Source: Monocercomonoides exilis PA203
Taxonomy: Eukaryota; Protista; Preaxostyla
NCBI GenBank assembly: GCA_001643675.2
Contig: LSRY02000018.1
Span: 806,001-870,000 of the forward strand
Length of the DNA: 64,000 bases
Reading direction: 5' to 3'
The position numbers and the translations under genes were made by a program. The number at the start of each line of letters is the position of its first letter. The stretch's first letter is position 1. Below are positions 1-54,540 of this stretch, in pieces. The notes beneath the pieces were generated by a model. That model did not search any database, was not told the origin of the DNA, and saw nothing but the letters and a program-made list of their open reading frames with translations.

Positions 1-3000
1 GCAGCCAGCAATCTTAATCTTTCCCGTGTCTTTGAGCCATACATTGATTACTCCACCCTCTTTGCATTTTGCATTGCCAACATTTCTGAAATCACACTCT
101 TCAATATTCACGCTTCCTTCCAGTTGAGATGAAATAATCGGACTCATCGCTGCCTGCGGAGAAGCAGAACATCTGTCAAATGAAATGTTCTTCAGCAACA
201 AAGTGCTGCGTCCTCCTGCTGTCTCTGAGAAGAAAGCCGCACACAACAAAATCATACCAACTGAAATGTTATTCATTGTTATTGCTGACGAGCCTGCATA
301 TTTCATGAATGAGCTCTCCAGACGGAAGCTGTGCTCACCAATAGAGCAATTATTCAGCACCACTGTTCCTTCTTTCACTTCAATGACATGCAAAAAAACA
401 GAAGAGTCCAGCTGTTCGCTTTCAAAACTTGCATTGTTCATATTAAGAAAATTGTCTGTTAAAATGAGTGTCTTCAGCACATTTTGCACAGATGGTAAAT
501 ACAGTTTGATTTTGTTAAATGAGAGAGCATCGTGGTTGAATATTGCTGCATCAAACACCCCCATCGTGAAGTCAAATCGAAATGTAGAAAACGTTGAACT
601 CCAAGAAGGAAATACGGTCATCGAAGACAATTCAATTGGCTTGCTTATTACTGCTTGCGATACAATAGATATTCCTTTGTTTGTGGCAGTTGAATCAAGA
701 ATCTTATCCATACCATATTCAAATGTCTTGCACGGCTCGCTTTCATTCCCACATCTGAACCAGTCTTCCCCATGCTCAGAACCAGCATTCTTCACATTGA
801 CAATCGCCAGATGAATAGTCATTAAAAAAATAAGATCGATATGTTGGTCAATTGAAGAAGCATTGCACCCACACATCATGTTTTCAACATCAGTTGTTGG
901 AGTTAGAAGATTCCCAAATTTTTCAAATGTCACACAAGAATTAAGATTTGGTGCTTGGATGTATATATCTCGTCCATATTTTGCCTTGTTAGATTCAAAA
1001 CTGCATCCAGTAATTTTATAATCGCTGCTAATATCTTTCAATAGCAAAAAAACTCCTCCTCCTTTTCCAGCCGATTCACTGGCAGTATTAGATGATATTA
1101 GGCATCGATTAATTTCAAATTTTTTATTCGCCCCAACTGCAAAGGAAATGGCTCCTCCATTGATTGATGCTGTGCAAGACGATGAAGAAAAATTGCATGA
1201 TGTAGCATTGAAGGAGCCGATGCCAGTCGAAGAAGATATAACAACACATGAACTTGTCTCTTTGGTCGATGAAATTCGTTCAAATCCACAATTGGACAAT
1301 TCAATTTTCTGCGAAGATGATCCACTCACTAATTGTGAAATAAGACCTGCTTTGGAAGAGGTGAACTTGAGGTTTGCAAATCGGCTTTCAGAAAACTTGA
1401 AAATCCCATTTTGAAGGGAGAACAATGAACAAGAGCAACATAATTCACTGGAAGCATTAAATGATGTGCTTTCAAGAACAAGTCTGCCTCCGCTTATTGA
1501 AACAAGCGCAATTGTTAAAGCATTTGAAGCACTTCCAACAAAAATACAATTTGAAAAGGTTTGGGTTCCGCTTGTTCCACTCAGCAACTTCTGAACTGAA
1601 CTTCCTTGAGGAACTGAGCCAATTGAATAAACAATGTTTTGAGATTGAAAGGCGCCTGATGATATAAAAGCAGAATTCGCGGTTCCTGCAATTCCGTCAA
1701 TAATAATTGTTGCAGTTGCTGATGAATCATTTCTGCTAATAACAACATTTGACACTTCAGTTCCAGAATAAGACACTTTCACAGTTCCATTTGCTTTGAT
1801 TGTTCTGGAAGATCCATTTAGGCGTTGAATAGCCTGAGTAATTGTCCTGCAATGAGCGATTACTGATCCACAATACTTTCCATCCCCTCGCGACGCATTT
1901 GAAGCATGAATTATCGACGATGTGTATCCAAATATGAAGGGCATCAAATCAAAATCCCCCCGAAATGTTGCATTGTCTCTTCCAAACCACGCATTTGTTC
2001 TATTCGGAACATATGTCGCAGTTACCGCTGCTGAATAATAAGAGTCCACATTTGCGTTTGGCAATGAAGGAACGCATATAAAAACGTCTCGTCCAAAATA
2101 TGCTTGATTCGACGAGAACTTGCAGCTGCTTATAGAAAATTTTGATAGCGATCCGCTTGTTGAGAAGTACAATGCTCCTCCTCTTCCACTGCTTTGACTG
2201 ACGCAGCAACTTGTAAATGTGGTGTTAGAAAAGTTAATTTGAGAATCATCAGTGCTCAAGCATATTGCGCCACCATTTGTACCATTCTCGTGAAGGCTCG
2301 AAATCGAAGATATTGAGCAGCTATTAAATGCAAGAGATTTTGGATACTTTGCTGAGATGAAAATAGTGGAATAATTTTTTGATGAGGTGATATTCGTGAA
2401 ATTGCATAACGAGAATGTTAACTTCGTCACTCCATTTGTCATTTGAAATAATGAATTGTATTGCAATTTTGCGTTCTTCGTAGCAATCCTATTGAAGGAA
2501 ATGGTTCCGCTCGAAAAATAAAACAAACTATCAGATAATTCAGTCATCCAGTCACTTGGAGTCGAAATCGTAATATCAGAAACAGAAAGGTTGAAATTAC
2601 CAGAAGAACCATATATAATACGAAAAGAATTTTTGTTCACATTTATTGTAAATGTAGAAATCGTTGCATTAACAGCTCCAGAAATGGAAATCATTGAGGT
2701 TGCTGAATATTTATTCAAATTAAAAATAACTTTTGTTTGACTTTCTCCGAACGCGTCCACTTTCCCTCTTGTTGAATTAATCACCCAACTGTCATTTTCG
2801 TTGTAAGTTCCGTTCAGAAGTTTGATTCTCTTCAAATAATTTGGCCTTCGATTGCTTATGGCTGTGTTGACTGATTTGCAAGCAACGTCAACGCTTAACC
2901 CACAATTAACTGTTGTGCTACCATTGGACGCAGCAATCTGATACTGATCCATTTTAATAAGCTTAGAATAATTTGTTCCATCAATATATACTCTATTTCC

Positions 3001-4135
3001 ATCATTATATGTAAAACTTGATGAAAATGTTATATCAACATCTTTTGTTGTCCAATCGAAATTATAAACATAAAAATCTGGCCCAAGATTATTTGTTGCC
3101 TTGCAGTCATAAAAAACATTGTTTTTTATGGTTCCGTATCCAACTTCATTAATGTATATTCCTCCTCCATAATTTGCTGTGCAATTCTCAAAAGTACAAT
3201 TCAAAACAGTCAAATTATAATTGATGGTTCCCCAAATTTCTCCATCATAAAATAGACCTCCACCGTTTGTTCCTGTACAATCTTTAAAAATCGTAGAAGT
3301 AACATTTGCATTTTTCCCTGTTATGCTTTGCTTTGCACGAGAAACATGAAACAATGACGAAGGAGTTGAATGAGAGCATTCATAAAATTCGCAAAGATCA
3401 CAGATAAAATCTTGCGATGGCGAAGTAAAAGAAAGCCCATGAACAACGCCTCCATAAAATGCATCGTGAACATGAATAAACGTGGATAATTTTATTGCCG
3501 AAGAAATAACAAATGAGCAATTCTCCTTCGCAGAAGCTTCATTTCCTGTTTTCACCTTGGCTGTTACATTTGCAAAGTAACAGTGATCGACAGCTTCGTA
3601 GTTTCCAATCCCAGAGCACAGTAAAGACGACGATTTTCTTGATAAGATTGTGAAATCAGAGAAGCATGAATTTATTAGTTTTACTCCAGAAGAAGCTTCA
3701 TTCTGCAAATTTACGATAGAAGGCAACTGTCTTTTGCATGTGCAAGTGTCTATCGAAACGTTTGAAAACAAAACAGATCCTGATGAAGCAAACGGAGTTA
3801 ATGCTTTCGAAGAATAAACAAATTTTGTGTTGAAACATAAAAGTGAAGATTCTCCATCAAGAGCAGTAATTGAATATTGCTGCAAGTCAATGCAAAAAAT
3901 ATCATTAAGTTTTAAAGAAGAGTTTGACAAAAGAAACAAATAGTTTGAATTTGAGGAATTGCTGGGAATCGTTTGCTGCAGTCGCGTCGACTTAGCGGTT
4001 CCCTCGCTCGAAAATAATCCAGTTTTTTCAAATGCCCCATTTGCAGCTCCAAAGGCTGCGACAATGCAGCAAACAAAAAATTCAATCGTTAACAAATTTG
4101 TTTGATCTCGGAAGCATAACTTTTTTTCTGTTCAT
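1..4135 (-). CDS. Giant intronless surface-type protein (GG-rich beta-helix-like repeats and CG-x-C modules), N-terminal part; continues beyond the window start
   Basis: Both ends translate in the same minus frame (4095: LLTIEFFVCCIVAAFG, signal-peptide-like; 60-1: EGGVINVWLKDTGKIKIAGC). The ORF track shows no stop-terminated long ORF in this frame, consistent with about 1365 open codons running off the window. Motifs CGLSVDVACKSV, CGSVIAHCRTI, CGNESEPCKTF and NGGAI resemble those of the 2732-aa protein at 24257-32455. The ATG at 4135 is one base out of frame across an A7 run. Confidence 0.8.
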
Positions 4136-22420: not shown

Positions 22421-22857
22421 AGCTGCGATTTCAAGAAAACGATTTTTGACAAAGCCAATTATTTAAATTATTGGGTGATTATTTTTGAAAGTTATTATTT
22501 CTTTTTAAAAGTTCGGTTCGATAATAATACTTGAACATTAAAAAAAGATCACTGAAAAATGAAAAGACTTACAAATGGCATCATCATCTTCATTTGAGCA
22601 AAAACATATGACTGCCAAACATCTGTGATGAATTCAGCGTTCGAATACAAAATATCTGTGAAAGGCAAACAATCTTTGAGAAATCAATGCACAGAAAAAA
22701 GTTATAATTTCAAAAATAATCATGCAATTGAACCATTTCGTGATATTTTCCCAGTCGAATAACACTTGATTCTGAGTTTTGAAATTTTCAAATAATATTA
22801 TAAAAAAAATAAATTACATCGACGTGATATTAAAATTTTGTCATGGAGAAGAAAAAA

Positions 22858-23112
22858 TGGACTTTCAAGCTTTTAGCGCACAATGCATGAAAAAACTATT
22901 TCACTTATAACATTTTTAAACTTAATCAAATTTCAAAAAAAACTGATTTTCATATCTGAAACAAACATCATTGATTCAATAACATGTTTTATGACCTCAC
23001 ACGTTTGCTTAAAAAAAAAATGAACCCATTTCATTCATATTTTTTGATCACAAAAGGTTAATCAAAAGTTCCTAATTTTTCAAACAAAATGCCTGAAGTC
23101 AATGATTTTGTC
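22858..23112 (+). repeat. Diverged copy of the outer 260 bp or so of the large TIR at 46503/51659
   Basis: Colinear blocks shared with 46509-46767: GGACTTTCAAGCTTTT, GCACAAnGCATGAAAA, TTTCACT, TGATTTTCATATC, CATCrTTGA, AACATG, AAAAATGrACCCATTT, TTTTTCAAA, CCTGAAGT. Confidence 0.8.
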
Positions 23113-23912
23113 CCATGTCAGAAATTCTTTCATTGTGCAGTATTTAATGTTTCAATTCAAATTTCATCCAAAGTTTTATCAATTATGTAATTTTTACCAA
23201 TTTGTTCGTATTCTCAAATAGTTTTTTAATTTTTTTCATCCTTGTTTTTTAATTTGTATTTACGAATTTTTGACACTTTCAAATATAAATAAAGCTAAAA
23301 CAATACTAAAAAAACAAATTGTTCATTATTCTATTAGATAATGCACATCAGGTTGTTCTTTTTTATAATAATATATTCCAAGTCCGAAAATCATTCATCC
23401 TCAGATTCGATTTTTAGCCATTTGAAAAAATAGAAAATGAAGAAATCATTCACATCCAAAGATCTTTTCATTTTCATGAATTCTTTTTGATTGATCAATA
23501 TTCCAAAGGAAACAATCATTTTGATGATGATGAGCCGAACAATTTCTTTCAGAAAAGAGCACTGACTTTCATGTAAACAAGCAATCATGCTCATTCACAA
23601 TTTGAATATTTCATAAAAACAAAAATGAACACTCAAAATGATATTATAGTGAATGTGAAAAATATCAACTCAAATGACTCCCTCTGTAAATTACATATTA
23701 TCATCCTAAAATACACATCAAACGAAAAAAAGTTGCCAATGGTGTTGTTTTTTAATTTGATGAATACAGATTAAAAGAAATAAATAAATAAGAACAATTT
23801 AACAAAGAAAATGACTTTCAAATCAAATGACTCTTAACAAATCTCTCTCACACAAAAATCGGAACGAAAATACAAATAAGTGTAATTGTGAATGAAAAAC
23901 ATTACGTTTTCG

Positions 23913-39776: not shown

Positions 39777-41194
39777 ATGGCAACAACGTGTGACTATTTG
39801 TTATTTCTTTCTTTATTCACATTAATTATTTTATTTGGTGAAATATTCCGTTCATTGAACTTTGGGAAATGTTCTCATCACCAAAAAAAATGTTCTTCCT
39901 TTTAGAAAACAATCGCCATGTCCTTCACCTTCTCCCCCGGTTCAGCGTGTTGCTTTGACGGGAGGGGACAAGGAAATTGAGGAAACTTCGCATGAATTGT
40001 GCAAAACATTTGAGGAAATGCATTTGAAGGATGAATTGCTTCGTGGAGTTTATTCATATGGCTTAGAGACTCCATCACTTATTCAGCAAAAAGGAATCCT
40101 TCCAATTGTTAGAGGACGTGATCTTCTTGCTCAAGCCCAGTGTAGAACAGGAAAAACAACCGCTTACTCAATTGCTTGCTTGCAGAAAGTTGATCCTTCT
40201 TACCACTTCACACAAGCGTTGATTCTTGCTCCGTTTTGTGAACTTGCAATGCAAACGCACAATGTTTGTTTTTTTCAAATGTATTTTGATGATATTTTTA
40301 CATGTGCTTTTAAAGATGATTTCAAAAATAGCGAGATTCATGAAAGGACTCAACATTTTGAGAGTTGTTGGTGGAGAAGCTATTAGCGAAACAGCAAGGA
40401 AAGTTGCTGAAGCTCCTCAACATATAATTGTTGGAACACCTGGGAGAGTGGCGCATATGATTCGTTCTGAAATTCTTGATGTTTCTCATCTGAGAATCTT
40501 TGTGCTCGACGAAGCTGACGAAATGCTTTCTCAAGGGTTTAAGGATAAGATTTTTGATATCAACTCAAATTTGCCGAAAAATACACAAACAGTTGTGATG
40601 AGCACAATTATGCCCCAAGAAATTATCGAGATTACTCGCCAGATTCTAAACGATCCTGTTCAAATTTTGGTTCCTCGCGATGAGCTCACACCTGACGGGC
40701 TGCGCCAATTCTATGTGGCTGTTGAAAAAGAAGAATTCAAAGAGGAAGCACTGTTCGACCTTTACGATTCGATCCAGGTTGCACAATGTGTCATCTTCTG
40801 CAACTCCAGGCGCAAAGTGGACTATATCACTGAAGATCTTCGGAGCAGAAAGTTCACAGTCAGTTCGATTCACGGTGCCATGGAACAAGAAGACAGAAAC
40901 CGTATTCTGCAAGATTTCAAAGATGGGAAAAACAGAGTGCTCGTTACAACAGATTTGTTGTCGCGTGGCACTGAAGTTCAGCAGGTTTCGCTTATTGTGA
41001 ACTATGACTTGCCGATGGAAAAGGAGTCATATATTCACAGAATTGGCATATCAGCCCGTTTTGGAAAAAAAGGAATTGTCATCAATCTTGTCACAGAAGA
41101 AGATGGACAGATGCTGAAAGACATTCAGGAATTCTATGGAACAAAAATGGAGGAAATGCCAGCTGATATCAAAGAACTGCTGCAGCTGAAATAA
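39777..41194 (+). CDS. EIF4A: eIF4A-like DEAD-box protein with degenerate helicase motifs
   Basis: Exons at about 39777-39787, 39906-40263 and 40316-41194. Clear eIF4A scaffold: LLRGVYSYG, VGTPGRV, VLDEADEML, VIFCNSRRKV, SLIVNYDLP, YIHRIG, EEMPADI. Confidence 0.85.
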
Positions 41195-44986: not shown

Positions 44987-46168
44987 AAAGGAGGAAGAGA
45001 ACGAAGATCTTGGGAACAGTTATCAATAAAAACAAAAGCGGATTTGCAGAAGAGAGCTTGTGAATGATGCAAAAAGAAATTAACTCGTTTATTTTGGCTG
45101 GTTTGATATGTGAAATCTATTGAAGAGCAACGCATTGTTTGCATAAAATTTCAACATTGTTAATTATTTCTGGTGTAAAGAGATTAATATTTACGAAAGT
45201 TATTGTTTACGTTTATGAGTCATAGCTGATATTTTAAAGGTTTTTTTTTATATGTTTTTTTCATTGTTTTTTCATCAGTTTTTAATGGAATTCTGAAAAT
45301 GATGGAGAAGTTGCTTTATGTTTCGGTGTCTGTTAATTATTTATTGTTTCTCTTTGTTATTCACAAATTTTTGTTTATCGTTTTCCATTGGCTTTGTATG
45401 TTAATCATTTGAACAACATGCATTTTGTTCTATTTTTGAAATTTTCCATTATTTATGCATGAAAAAAAGATTGTTACGAATATTGCATAATCGATTGATT
45501 TTTTAAAATTCGGAAAAACAATTTGAAAGGTTTTCCGCACTTTGAATTCGTTGTTATGTAGATTGCGATAATGTTGAAGTGAGTTTTAGTGAGAACTTGT
45601 TCATTCATGAGGGGAAATATATGTTAAAAAACTTTTATTGAAGATCTTTGCTCAATTCAACATGATGATCAAACCCAAATAATAAAATAATTAATTAATT
45701 AACTCAATAATAAATAAAATAGTTAAATCAAAACCAGATCTTTTTGATTTATTATCAATTGTTTGAACTCAAATCAATCTTCAGGAACTTTTTTTCAAAA
45801 GAATGGTTCATTGTTGACTATTTTTTTTTTTAATTTTCATTTTATTTTATTTAAGTTTTTGTTTTAATTGTGTGATGAATTATTAATTAGTTCTTTGTTC
45901 AAAAAAAATCCACCTTTTTTGAATGAAATAAAAAATGAATGCAAATTATTAGATTAAAAAAGAAAAGAATTGGTGCAAAATAAATTGAAAAAGTTAATTT
46001 TATGTTGTTTTTTTCAAGAGTCCTTCATTTTCCAAACTTTTCAAATAAACAGTCGAAATTTATTGATCTTATAATGAAGAAAAAAATTTGACTATTTTTT
46101 GGTTAACTGTGACTAAGTTGGGAGGTTATTTTTGTTATGAAAAATTTTTTTCGAAGTATTGATTATTT

Positions 46169-46232
<64 letters not shown>

Positions 46233-46502
46233 AAGTTATTTTTCCTTCACATGGATTTTGCAGATAATTGTCAATAGACAATAAGCTTTTAATGAATACA
46301 TGACAAAGAAATCTGTAAACGGAGTAATTTATTTTCTGTATTCATTCATTAATATTCAAAGTTAATTTTTTGACAAGATTTTTCTGAGATAAAGATGATT
46401 TTTATAAAAACAATCACCTCTTTGGAAAATGCTTATATTACCATTTATTTCATTCAAGAAATGAAAATGCTTTAAAGTGAGAAATGCTTTAGAAATTAGT
46501 GA

Positions 46503-47487
46503 AAATACGGACTTTCAAGCTTTTTTTTTTTTGCACAAAGCATGAAAAGATTGTTTCACTCACTTCTTAATATAACTTTATCAGATTTTAAAATAGATTT
46601 GATTTTCATATCCGTTTACAGGCATCGTTGAAATCAAAACATGAAGTTCTCAAATATTTCAGGAATGTCAAAAAATGGACCCATTTTTGTTGTGTTTTTT
46701 TACTCAAAAAGTCAGTGTAAAATGCATATTTTTTCAAATGAAAATCCCTGAAGTGAAATATTTTTCCATATTATGTTAAATAATATTGCAACAGATGAAA
46801 ATTTTACATTTTGCACAAAAATCCTTATTAATAGCATTATATCATTTGCGATTCACCGTATCTTAACCTTAGACACACAACTTGATTCGACACGTCAGAG
46901 ATATGGTATATCAGCTATAGATCCATCTCGATAAAGATCAATCAATATTATTTATTTATGTGTATCTGATGGCTGTTATCATCTTGTTTAATAAGTTGGA
47001 ATAAACAATGATAATAAGATAGAGATCGAGAGTTATTGCTTATATTCTTAGGGGTTTATCATGATTAGATTTTCAGTGATGTTCTATAAAGAAGGAGTTA
47101 TTGATAGGAGTTAATCGATATGTATCTATAGCTGATATATCATATGTCCAAGTAGGAGATTAGCTAAAAGATTAGCTGAAAGTGTCGAAGATGGAAATAT
47201 TAGTGTGAAAATTGTGTGTTATCGTTGATGTGATCGCAAATAAAAATAATAGATTAAGTTTTTGCTTCATAGCAAATGGATCGGAAGAAGATATACACAA
47301 CTGTGGAAGAAGCGAAGGCTGCTCAACAGAAACAGATTATACAGTTTCAGGAAAAACGTAGGGAAGAAACTAAGTATTACAACGAACATGTATCTGAGAA
47401 ACAGAAGAAATTGATTAAGTTATTGAGGAGAAAGGTTATCGAAGATGATGAGCAGTTAGATGAGTTGATGGAAAAAGTTAATGGTTA
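46503..47487 (+). repeat. Left TIR (985 bp)
   Basis: Direct comparison with the reverse complement of 50675-51659. Confidence 0.97.
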
Positions 47488-47506
47488 TTTGCATACACCA
47501 GGTTGA
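47276..47506 (+). CDS. Small charged helical protein (76 aa) encoded in the left TIR
   Basis: Intact ATG-to-stop ORF MDRKKIYTTVEEAKAAQQKQ..., identical over 70 aa to the copy in the right TIR. Confidence 0.6.
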   Translation: MDRKKIYTTVEEAKAAQQKQIIQFQEKRREETKYYNEHVSEKQKKLIKLLRRKVIEDDEQLDELMEKVNGYLHTPG

Positions 47507-47967
47507 TTGGGCAAATTGTGTAAATTGATGAAATATAACAGACTACACACATTTGTTGTACCGTAGATTGTATCAAACAATGGTCACGGTGGCATTATGG
47601 TGGATTGTCGCATTGATGTTTTTCACTTGACTTGAGTGTTATTTTGGTGTATTAAGCTTTCAAAAGTCTAAACTGGTAAACAGGACACCGAATTGTGGCA
47701 ATATCAAAGACTCAGCTGAAGGGAAATAATTGGTTGAATCTCCGTGCTGGGGGCGTGTCCTGGTGTTCAGGTGTCCAGGATAGTTTTGTTTCATCTGAAG
47801 TGAGCTGTAAACATGCCATTTCTGCCAACATGAGCATTTTCCCCCTAATTTTTTATGATTTTGAAGGTTTTTATTTCATTTCGACTGTATCATCATTTTG
47901 CCACATTGCCACATGGTATGATTGGTGATATATAACAGTTGGCATACACTTTTGTATCGTTTGTGTC

Positions 47968-50342
47968 TTATTGATTTCCTAAAAAACGAATATGTTCAGT
48001 CAATTTCCACAGAACAGTCGATGTTATCTTCATCTTCTCGTTGTTTGAGGAGTTGTTCATACTCTGACTTGAGTTTGTAACACCACACTTGATTTTCTCT
48101 TCCATCACTTTTCTTGTGCTCATATCTGTCTTTAATTGCCAATTGGAATGAGCGATCGTTCTTGTATTCAACTGGTCTTAAAAACAAAGTGCATCAGAAC
48201 ATCTCCACCCTTATTTGAGTTTATTGAAATGCTCCTGACAGAACACATCATTGACAGAGAGTGATGCTTCAATGATATATTCCTTTGCCTCCGTTGTTGG
48301 AATAGCTCTTGTGTTGAAATTGGTGAGATCTTTGCTGATGAAATAACAGAGAAGTTATTTATAGAATTCGTTGTAGAAAGAGTTTGTGAAATCCTTGAAG
48401 AATGTGAGATTGTTCTTGTATTTTGAGTTTCAATCACAAACAACATATCTTCTGTCACCAATCTCAATCTTTTCCGGGTATGTGTGATTTGTCACAAATA
48501 TGAAGTTAACAACGTTCTCAGCTGTTCTTCTTGGCTGATTCTTCTCATTGATTCTGATTGTTGAATCCGCGATTATTCTCTTCAATGCGTCAAAGTTAGC
48601 TGTTCGATCATCTCCAACATTCTTCAATTCGTTATGAACAATGAAAATTTTCTTTTCGACGATAGAGTTGAACTGTCCTGTCAGTTCTGCAATCTCTGTA
48701 ACATTCGGACATGAATATCCTGACAACAGTTCAGTTAGTTTATTTGTCCAGACATTCTTTCCAATACCTTGCAAACATTTGAGAACAAGTGATGTTTCTG
48801 CTTTTTTTCCCAGGATTTTGAACAATTGAAGAAATCAAACAGAGGATGTATTGATAGAGTTCTTCGTTGTCATTGGCAACAACTTTTCGTGTGAAATCAA
48901 AGAATGGTTTGACAATTTCGTTGTTTTGTCCGTTTGCCATTTGGTGTTTGAACTCATGGAACAGAGAGAATATTCGATAGTTATCTGAGAAGAACTTCAC
49001 ACCATCGATCGACAGAACATGTGAGTATTGTTCGAAAGCTGTCTCAACTGTGAGAGTCTTTTTATCATCATCCCAGAGTTTTATTGTTTTGAACAGTTCG
49101 AACATTGCTGATTTTGTCTTGAATGTTATCGAATAACAAGAGGAGTGAATGTCAAACTATTTCACAATGAATTCCATCCTTGCTTCAACAAACCTCAGAA
49201 CTTTTGTGAGATCTTCAGCGACTTCAGACAGAAAGGAGTATTGATTTCGACAAGCTTTATCCCTGATTTCAGAGAACGAGAATGATGAGTTGAGATTAAT
49301 TTCATGAACGGTAATCTCTCGTGGAGGTTCTCCCTTTCGCTCGTTTTCTTTTCTGAGGAGTGGAACGATCACTTCGTTGTTATATGTTGGATTCTATCTT
49401 ATGACAATTTTTTGTAGAACAAATGGATGTGACTTGTTATCTCTTTATCTGTTTCGTTTCCCTTCAAAGTGAGTGATTGCATTTGATGTTAGGGCAGCTA
49501 TCTCTCTGATTTGATTGAAAAGATAATCTATTGATTGGTTGTCGAAACCGTTAATGTTGACGAGAGAGTTGAGAGCTGCAAACAACGGTAAAAGAGTTAA
49601 CTCAAAATCAAGTGAAAGATAGCCTGTGTCGTTATGTATTTCAACATCTTTAAGTCCATTAACAAAAGCAAGAGCGACAGTTGGAGACATATCAACGATT
49701 CCATCTTGTGTGAGAAGATTATATGGTTCAGCTGCCATTGCTACTAATGAATTCTCTGTTTTGAGATCAATACCGAAGATGTTAAAAACACTCTCGAGTG
49801 ATGAAAGATCTCTGAGCTCTCTGTAATTGTTGAGGGAAATGTATTTGGTGATGATTCTTTTGCCATCTTTCATCTCTCTGAATGAAGAGTCAGCTTGAAT
49901 AATAAGCCTCTGTTTTCCATCTCCAATACCTGCAAAAATGTCGATATCGTACTCTCGACTCGTGAACACTTTTGTTTGTAAACAAATATTTGAAGCGATA
50001 ACCACACAGCTTGCAATAAATGAAAAGACCACAATGAGCTGTTTGCACAAGCCCGACATTTCGGGGGAATTTCTCGAGAATGGAATTCCTGATGGTTTTC
50101 GTTTGTTCAGCTTGAAGGGATTTGTTAATATCAACATCAATAACACAAAGATCCTCACATTTGCTGTTATCGATAGCTGTTCCAGTGTGTCGTTTGCCCT
50201 GCTTCTTGTCGGAATATTTCTTGAAGTCGAACAAATCAAAAATGTGATCTTTCATTCGTTCTCCCCGCGTTTGCTGCTCAGTTGAAATTGAATCGATTAA
50301 TTTTTGGATTATGTTTTCAGAGTCTGTTTGGGGCTCTGTTAT
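47968..50342 (-). pseudogene. Frameshifted primase-polymerase fused to an SF3/D5-type (DUF5906/NrS-1-like) helicase
   Basis: Successive minus-strand fragments. Prim-pol-like: LCVIDVDI and VQTAHCGLFIYC (compare DxD and TxxGGxHxY), then DIDIF. Pre-helicase: FSLFHEFK...VANDNEELYQYILCLISSIVQNPGKK. Helicase: Walker A LKCLQGIGKN, LTGQFNS, Walker B IFIVHNE, LKRII..STIRINEKN, motif C NFIFVTN and arginine finger DRRYVV. Confidence 0.8.
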
Positions 50343-50673
50343 TTTTTAAAAATTATAAAAACAAGTTTTTTTTTAAACGAAGATATTTTCTCAACGTCAA
50401 TTTATGTGGAAGATGACATTGAGGTTAATGTCGAAAATAGACGATAACAGTTAATTTTCACATTAATTGTATTTTGCCCATTTTGCTCAGTTTGACCGTT
50501 TGCCCACATTATCTCTAGAATGTTATTGACTCGGTGCACCCAGTGCAGGTGTAAAAGCACTGAGATTTGAGCTGATATTTCCACGCCACAGCATCCTAAT
50601 TATCTGCCCAATCCACCCAGTGCAAGCAATGACAGTTAACGCATTCAACCAAAAATATAAACAAACTTCCAAC

Positions 50674-50886
50674 TTAACCATTAACTTTTTCCATCAACTC
50701 ATCTAACTGCTCATCATCTTCGATAACCTTTCTCCTCAATAACTTAATCAATTTCTTCTGTTTCTCAGATACATGTTCGTTGTAATACTTAGTTTCTTCC
50801 CTACGTTTTTCCTGAAACTGTATAATCTGTTTCTGTTGAGCAGCCTTCGCTTCTTCCACAGTTGTGTATATCTTCTTCCGATCCAT
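50674..50886 (-). CDS. Small charged helical protein (70 aa) encoded in the right TIR
   Basis: Same ORF as in the left TIR; its TAA stop falls exactly at the inner TIR boundary. Confidence 0.6.
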   Translation of the reverse strand: MDRKKIYTTVEEAKAAQQKQIIQFQEKRREETKYYNEHVSEKQKKLIKLLRRKVIEDDEQLDELMEKVNG

Positions 50887-51659
50887 TTGCTATGAAGCAA
50901 AAACTTAATCTATTATTTTTATTTGCGATCACATCAACGATAACACACAATTTTCACACTAATATTTCCATCTTCGACACTTTCAGCTAATCTTTTAGCT
51001 AATCTCCTACTTGGACATATGATATATCAGCTATAGATACATATCGATTAACTCCTATCAATAACTCCTTCTTTATAGAACATCACTGAAAATCTAATCA
51101 TGATAAACCCCTAAGAATATAAGCAATAACTCTCGATCTCTATCTTATTATCATTGTTTATTCCAACTTATTAAACAAGATGATAACAGCCATCAGATAC
51201 ACATAAATAAATAATATTGATTGATCTTTATCGAGATGGATCTATAGCTGATATACCATATCTCTGACGTGTCGAATCAAGTTGTGTGTCTAAGGTTAAG
51301 ATACGGTGAATCGCAAATGATATAATGCTATTAATAAGGATTTTTGTGCAAAATGTAAAATTTTCATCTGTTGCAATATTATTTAACATAATATGGAAAA
51401 ATATTTCACTTCAGGGATTTTCATTTGAAAAAATATGCATTTTACACTGACTTTTTGAGTAAAAAAACACAACAAAAATGGGTCCATTTTTTGACATTCC
51501 TGAAATATTTGAGAACTTCATGTTTTGATTTCAACGATGCCTGTAAACGGATATGAAAATCAAATCTATTTTAAAATCTGATAAAGTTATATTAAGAAGT
51601 GAGTGAAACAATCTTTTCATGCTTTGTGCAAAAAAAAAAAAGCTCGAAAGTCCGTATTT
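50675..51659 (-). repeat. Right TIR (985 bp)
   Basis: Direct comparison with 46503-47487. Confidence 0.97.
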
Positions 51660-52663
51660 CTCCCCGTTTGGTCTAATTATAACAAGATTAACATCAATTT
51701 TTTCCCTTTCATTAATCAATGCTCCTTCAAAAATTCTCAGTTAATCCTCATTTCATTCTCCTCAGTATTTCTTTTTTTGCGCAAAAACCTAATTGTTTTT
51801 TCATATTTTCAGGGTGCTCTTTTTTTCTTCATTCTTTCATTCTAAATTTATGAGCAAATAACAAAACAATCTTTGTCCTTTATCCAATAGATATATTGGA
51901 AAGACCTGTTAGCAAATAAATTGGAATGAAACAAACCCAAAAAAAAGTTATGCAAAAGAATCTGAAATGCGGCGCTCATTAATAATTATTATTTGAAAAA
52001 ATTCGAATTCATGATGCTCAAATATTTTCCAAGTTCGTTTGATACTAAAGATTATTTTTTTCTTTCTATTTCTCAAATGTTTCTCTTTTTATTTCTTCAT
52101 ATCGAAACACTCAATTCATTGAACTCTCAACAATTTATGAGATATATATTTTCTGTCATTTCCTAATTATGAAAGATGGAATTCAAGCGAAATATTGCTT
52201 GCTTGTTTTCTTCTTCTTCATATCAAGCCATCAAACACTTTTGATCTCGAACCAGTAATCAGAAAAAAATGTTTATACATAATTTTGATATTTCAAAATT
52301 GAGAATTCCGATATACTTTCATTCTTCGTTTTATAAAACATAAAAAGAAACAAAAGAAACAGGAAAAAGAAAGAAAGAAAAACAATTTCACTCAAGAATA
52401 GTAAAAAGGAAAAGTGACTTGTCGCTCTGATAAATTGATAAACAAATCAATTAAATGTTTGTGAAATTAACACAATAGCAATATTAAATCATATTCGTAC
52501 AAACACAACATCAAAAAATTCTCAAACAAAACAATATTGAACTAATGAATAAATTATACATTCAAAAAGCTAATTTCAATTATTATTAAAAAACAATCAA
52601 AAATTTTGTAAATGAATTTACGAGCTTCATATTTCTCGATTTTTTCCACATATATAATTAAAT

Positions 52664-54540
<1,877 letters not shown>

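Follow-up and report, generated by a model that had tools for sequence, protein, structure and literature searches.

Identity between the two ends of an element is commonly taken to mean that it inserted recently. A locus of Monocercomonoides exilis raises the question of what such identity means when the gene between the ends is dead, as it holds two nearly identical inverted arms around a heavily decayed core. We analysed this locus in a 64-kb stretch of genomic DNA (hereafter the window), in which ordinary host genes lie near the element, namely a DEAD-box helicase and a thiolase (39859-41194, 52664-53985), each read in several frames, with introns as the likely reason. Considering all the evidence, we think it rather probable that two things hold jointly: the locus holds a dead member of a repeated family of virus-derived 5.2-kb elements, in which a single primase-helicase gene is flanked by kilobase inverted arms, and the two arms of this copy were converted in place after its gene had died.

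Arms, inner repeat and ends of the element

Exact alignment of the two arms identified a single mismatch in 985 bases (984/985 identical), in full agreement with the preliminary description, which had reported about one mismatch in this length. The span that it had given, 46503..47520, does contain the left arm, while the right arm lies outside it. Long terminal inverted repeats, a trait of Polinton-like viruses and endogenous virophages, are thus present in the element, and they enclose a spacer of 3187 bases. The mismatch (46517 in the left arm, 51645 in the right) sits 15 bases from the outer end, leaving the inner 970 bases without any; here the left arm has the letter of the family and the right arm deviates. 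The inner boundary of arm identity is sharp. The features of the arms are:

46503-47487, plus strand: left arm, 985 bases (from the arm alignment; exact contig over 46671-46925)
50675-51659, minus strand: right arm, 985 bases (from the arm alignment; an exact 7672-base contig covers 51615-51800 at depth 100.9)
46898-47148, no strand assigned: imperfect hairpin with stems 46898-46947 and 47099-47148, mirrored at 51014-51264 in the other arm; 82% stem match
47276-47506, plus strand: small open frame of 76 codons, basic and charged, running 19 bases past the inner end of the left arm
50674-50886, minus strand: mirror copy of the small frame, stopping at the inner boundary of the right arm

The hairpin is more stable than expected for its composition (folding z −4.07, with 0 of 200 shuffles equally stable), and from its sequence it is a candidate origin or recognition site. 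At 51058-51230, contigs of other copies switch strand within the hairpin (X1 depth 209 and 88), which may mean that the loop is flipped in those copies or that their stem is more nearly perfect. The small frame has one known homologue, P0011 (80% identical), which shows no shift of frame near 47488. Against Pfam the small frame gave nothing above the curated cut-off; a weak match to DUF4108 (E 0.01) fell below it, disappeared when P0011 was searched, and was set aside. No tRNA was detected in the window and no Rfam family in 45500-52500. Many contigs share just the outer 200 bases of the arm or just its hairpin-and-frame part (breaks at 51265 and 51462), and the stretch 51302-51375 is private to the studied copy. 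The arm therefore looks modular, and other element types may share its modules. Elsewhere in the window, an older, unpaired copy of the outer 260 bases of the element was found at 22851-23119 (69% identical), with neither core nor partner arm in the window.

Just inside the arms, the preliminary description had noticed a weaker inverted match, which it read as an older arm of this copy continuing inward. The match is indeed there (22 of 28 bases, 47489-47516 against 50602-50629; 30 of 40 columns when extended), but it is offset by 44 bases from the arm register and so is not a direct continuation. Taken alone it is only modestly significant, with shuffle p values of 0.009, 0.035 and 0.13 under three scorings and 16 of 500 shuffles in another test. 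Other copies run past 47489 with letters that match the inner remnant at 17 of 21 positions by eye, which makes the remnant a true homologue of the small-frame end. In addition, another diverged copy spans the right inner junction (50575-50776, where 25 differences and 6 gaps fall within 202 bases), and thus both boundary and remnant are older than the studied copy. The offset and the shared junction together weaken the reading as an older arm of this copy, and the remnant is likely ancestral. The inner and outer neighbours of the arms are:

47477-47516, plus strand: left partner of the inner diverged match
50602-50640, minus strand: inner remnant, homologous to the small-frame end, 44-45 bases inside the arm register
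46493-46502, plus strand: likely the eroded true left end, outside the matched arm (8/10 match by eye to the end of another copy)
51660-51669, minus strand: likely the eroded true right end, outside the matched arm (6/10 match by eye to the loose ends of 19 contigs)

For the family, the true ends were inferred from short loose ends; those of 19 contigs run ~10 bases past the matched boundary. In the studied copy, the 10 bases beyond the arms are identical between the two sides at only 4 of 10 positions. A target-site duplication, including one of the 5-6 base Polinton/Maverick type, was sought at the flanks and none was found: the direct repeats there amount to one asymmetric match of 5 bases and the two 4-base stretches contained in it, and chance alone would give 2.3 matches of 5 bases. 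A duplication may have been erased by age, or the family may never make one.

Arms this similar could also have been collapsed or invented by assembly or polishing. The published M. exilis assembly combined long reads with ten polishing rounds, according to the accessible part of PMC8767320, and two of the frameshifts in the core (see below) lie in homopolymers. Our sequencing evidence consisted of contigs from four sequencing runs of a single sample, runs from which the assembly was probably made; none of the contigs spans the whole element and no spanning read was seen. Gaps in contig cover (for example at 48802 in X1) were not counted as evidence. Against an artefact, each of the four junctions is crossed by exact contigs that extend 29, 23, 28 and 45 bases into the arm (only 45 passes the 31-base bar), and both alleles of the arm mismatch occur in exact contigs. 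Depth points the same way. X1 single-copy depth is 85-102 over the core and right flank and 40-85 in the AT-rich DNA of the left flank, and a private 255-base arm piece (46671-46925) forms one exact contig at X1 depth 217.9. Relative to single-copy depth, private arm sequence reaches 2.2x in X1, 2.3x in X2 and 3.2x in X4; in X1 and X2, the bin 51302-51375 shows the same doubling, and depth is back to single-copy from 51672. Since both alleles exist and private arm sequence is at doubled depth, the arms are not a polishing collapse, a fate that the preliminary description had considered for arms that might differ in the reads. The artefact reading of the arms is largely refuted by these contigs, and we regard it as highly improbable.

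A dead primase-helicase gene between the arms

The core between the arms contains one recognizable gene, which takes up ~2380 of the 3187 inner bases:

47960-50342, minus strand (50342 to about 47960): dead PrimPol and superfamily-3 helicase gene (DUF5906, NrS-1-like), with 7 stops, 3 frameshifts and the start lost

Its pieces are 65-88% identical to P0004 and P0006, annotated as 'putative Poxvirus D5 protein' of M. exilis, and the M. exilis 'Poxvirus D5' proteins are its nearest named homologues; P0006, an 804-residue open protein, is a near-intact relative. For the C-terminal part, matches were found to DUF5906 and to the NrS-1 phage helicase (profile E 2e-36), and the N-terminal part has a weak profile match to pRN1 ORF904 (E 0.008). 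A structure model of P0004 (mean pLDDT 90.5, pTM 0.65) matches the fold of NrS-1 (E 2e-19) and, more weakly, those of ASFV PrimPol and the SaPI5 primase-helicase, at 11-19% identity. Kinship of the core to NrS-1, ASFV PrimPol, SaPI5 PriRep and pRN1 ORF904 is at the protein level only, and the window copy is dead. A protein library search found 360 representatives with E values no higher than 1e-30, and 51 of the 150 listed homologues were aligned together with P0004 and P0005 (53 in total). Three N-terminal residues are nearly invariant in this alignment (D69 in 53/53, D71 in 52/53 and H107 in 52/53), and we take them to be PrimPol catalytic motifs.

The preliminary description had seen several frameshifts and eroded catalytic motifs in this gene, and both are present. 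The assembly has three frameshifts (near 49980, 48802 and 48182), along with seven in-frame stops and a lost start codon. Of 54 alignment columns in which conservation is at least 80% and P0004 has the conserved residue, the core has lost 7, including the catalytic His of the primase and the first Gly of Walker A. The Walker B 'NE' was considered as a further sign of erosion and rejected, as all 53 aligned proteins have NE, which is thus native. A non-standard genetic code was likewise rejected as the source of the stops, since all three stop codons occur, at places where the homologues have varied residues.

Compared with the majority of five annotated copies, the core protein differs at 77 of 548 sites, while those copies themselves differ at 2.9-5.1%. 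Loss at conserved sites (13%) equals the overall loss (14%), as neutral decay predicts. From the seven stops, substitution is estimated at 5.2% per site (95% range 2.1-10.8%). Silent changes make up 10 of 26 listed coding differences against an expected 26% (p 0.10), and from this excess part of the divergence may predate gene death; the 26 classed differences come from 30 inner rows, with three at a frameshift and one non-coding row left out. As to whether the frameshifts are sequencing errors, as had been considered, exact contigs cover none of the three, and the two in homopolymer runs could be errors. Exact contigs do cover three of the seven stops (49447, 49396 and 47998) as well as the lost start. 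The gene is dead whether or not the frameshifts are errors.

Probable homogenisation of the arms after gene death

If the arms had decayed independently along with the core, they should differ at many places. The 5.2% per site implied by the stops predicts ~100 mismatches between the arms, and independent decay at 3-6% would yield 59-118, against the one observed. On this clock, the last homogenisation would date to ~1% of the decay time since death, with an upper bound of about 13%. Comparison with the rest of the family, made with contig pieces of other copies rather than whole copies, gave the same picture. At 142 places in 49600-51800, at least half of the family depth differs from the studied copy; 40 of these are shown, 10 of them in the arm, and at all 10 of these listed places the left arm shares the minority letter of the right arm. 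The longest of the listed pieces from other copies resemble the arm at 83-91% (13 records) and the core at 83-90% (9 records), and such pieces lean to diverged copies for arm and core alike. Identity within the copy thus far exceeds identity between copies and is accompanied by shared derived bases, which is the pattern by which arm-to-arm conversion is recognized. The shared minority letters, the equal distance of arm and core from other copies, and the ~100 expected mismatches all uphold the earlier suggestion that the arms were homogenised after the core had died.

We hold, with moderate confidence, that repeated arm-to-arm conversion in place after gene death best explains the matching arms. 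After insertion, the whole copy would drift by ~5% per site. Separated by 3.2 kb, the arms would pair inside one chromatid when breaks are repaired or DNA is replicated, and each would overwrite the other, so that new mutations would be either copied into both arms or erased. Towards the outer edge the conversion tracts would die out and the last ~10 bases would stay unmatched, and the most recent overwrite would fall at the late date estimated above. The living family, likely a derivative of a Polinton-like virus, would replicate through a primase-helicase of its own, with a putative helper needed for integration. For an old insertion, homology-limited conversion predicts differences that gather at the outer edge, while a fresh transposition should leave matched ends.

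Besides conversion, the preliminary description had proposed panhandle-type replication and recent mobilisation in trans. An active member of the family could have recently moved this dead copy, with its arms rebuilt from one template via a panhandle, an intermediate that has been proposed for Polintons and is known for adenovirus ends. Near-intact relatives such as P0006 exist, each arm has a hairpin, and ends are far commoner than cores in the family (in X1, depth summed at 80% likeness rises to 44066 near the end and is 793-3382 over the 5' part of the gene, where a single copy has ~100 and the sum is not a copy number), which is what movement in trans would lead one to expect. We nevertheless consider such a move unlikely. 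The exact pieces of the core are at single-copy depth, so the core has no identical sister; the flanks yielded no target-site duplication; the sole mismatch sits at the arm end; and the likely true ends differ between the two sides, even though an enzyme that mobilises the element should require them. The differing outermost bases, the missing duplication and the single-copy core favour conversion in place, which fits best of the mechanisms proposed earlier, with recent mobilisation fitting worse.

A single recent repair event, by template switch or break-induced copying, could instead have replaced a whole arm once, with no continuing correction. This would suit the 970 inner bases without mismatch and the sharp inner boundary, and similar long-tract repair has been proposed for the Galileo element of Drosophila in the accessible text of PMC3573991. 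Such an event would need to date from the final ~1% of the decay time, or from the final 13% or so at the most, and the inner junction is common to another copy, which makes the boundary old. Other copies also have doubled private arm pieces: 4 of 13 listed arm records are near twice single-copy depth (two of the four being one piece in two runs) and 9 of 13 at single depth, compared with 0 of 9 core records doubled. These doubled records may hint at a family-wide process, and duplicated loci or solo arms could mimic them. One snapshot fits both repeated conversion and one recent overwrite, and we judge the single event to be improbable.

Kinship of the family and meaning of matching ends

The copy number of the family is likely to be in the tens for cores, with many more ends in the genome. 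To place this family, we compared its gene content with that of known elements. The primase-helicase gene, a replication trait of Polinton-like viruses and virophages, is present (dead in this copy). The capsid and packaging ATPase genes of these viruses were not found, as the seven frames of the element gave only DUF5906 above the Pfam cut-off, and the element has no integrase frame (rve or tyrosine recombinase). Also absent are the protein-primed polymerase B and rve integrase of Polintons/Mavericks, the superfamily-1 helicase fused to an inactive polymerase of transpovirons (the helicase here being of DUF5906 / NrS-1 type), and, between the repeats, the transposase gene of cut-and-paste TIR transposons. 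Lacking capsid, ATPase, polymerase B and integrase, the element was not filed as a Polinton, Polinton-like virus or transpoviron. It resembles a reduced derivative or satellite.

With Polinton-like viruses and endogenous virophages (EMALEs) the element shares a primase-helicase gene and long inverted ends, the repeats of EMALEs being 0.2-2.3 kb with a median of 0.9 kb according to passages of PMC8547959. It differs from them in lacking capsid, ATPase, integrase and target-site duplication, and in its size of 5.2 kb against the 15-30 kb given in a section of PMC10120064. Transpovirons are closer in size class (~7 kb) and likewise have inverted ends, a helicase as main gene and no capsid, and they are sometimes integrated in a protist genome, as described in parts of PMC5499653; their superfamily-1 helicase fused to a dead polymerase differs from the PrimPol and superfamily-3 helicase seen here. 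Transpovirons are also marked by a free linear form that depends on a giant virus.

Relatives outside the genome were sought by pattern matching. The viral contig collection held no relative (0 of 13 matches with P0004 and 0 of 86 with the homologue alignment), and among metagenome contigs 0 of 141 matches were confirmed with P0004 and 3 of 255 with the alignment. No long inverted repeats were seen on these three metagenomic contigs, all of them partial. The metagenomic relatives are 41-43% identical and adjoin an HNH gene in L002 and L003. L003 encodes a 43% identical helicase and, beyond the HNH gene, a Pox_A32 packaging ATPase, while L002 has a 1285-residue frame without a Pfam family. The helicase genes of L002 and L003 are near-identical and helicase-only, without the PrimPol part, and the two contigs are likely pieces of one Polinton-like virus. 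The HNH and A32 ATPase genes beside the metagenomic relatives point to a Polinton-like virus source for the element. Among the full-length homologues P0012-P0027, 8 of 10 clusters examined sit solely on contigs of 2.4-4.5 kb, a length similar to that of a core flanked by long repeats; ordinary fragmentation would account for this as well.

The family could be a new class of minimal Polinton-like-virus satellites, 5 kb in size, with one primase-helicase and hairpin-bearing kilobase arms in tens to hundreds of copies, in which cores flip orientation and arms are copy-corrected long after death, possibly by the active primase-helicase of the family; we offer this as a doubtful, speculative proposal. 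No description of the family was found in the literature searched, which mostly comprised papers outside subscription and their main texts, and the supplements of PMC10120064 may list such loci. The family thus seems undescribed, and the contrast between its arms and its copies seems unusually clean.

Arm-to-arm conversion itself is already known from palindromes and has been proposed for Galileo. Spacer inversion is a predicted by-product of such conversion in sex-chromosome palindromes, whose arms are mostly 8 kb or more with selected genes. These palindromes likewise have within-copy identity far above that between copies, as stated in the accessible portion of PMC8327919, whereas here the arms are 1 kb long and flank a dead mobile gene. 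In Galileo, the repeats of one copy are 98-100% identical against a mean of 92-97% between copies, for which recombination and conversion have been proposed, as far as excerpts of PMC3573991 describe; Galileo encodes a transposase, which the element does not, and the contrast is larger here (99.9% against 83-91%).

What follows from this locus is that matching ends alone do not show that an element is young, with in-place copying between the arms as the likely mechanism. End identity would here understate the time since gene death ten- to a hundredfold. Since unclassified repeats make up 35% of the M. exilis assembly, according to the part of PMC8767320 that treats them, the family allows part of this fraction to be named as virus-derived. 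It also suggests that the annotated 'Poxvirus D5' genes of M. exilis are cores of mobile elements and not host genes. With many paired arms of varied ages in one genome, the family would provide a measure of inverted-repeat conversion in a protist.
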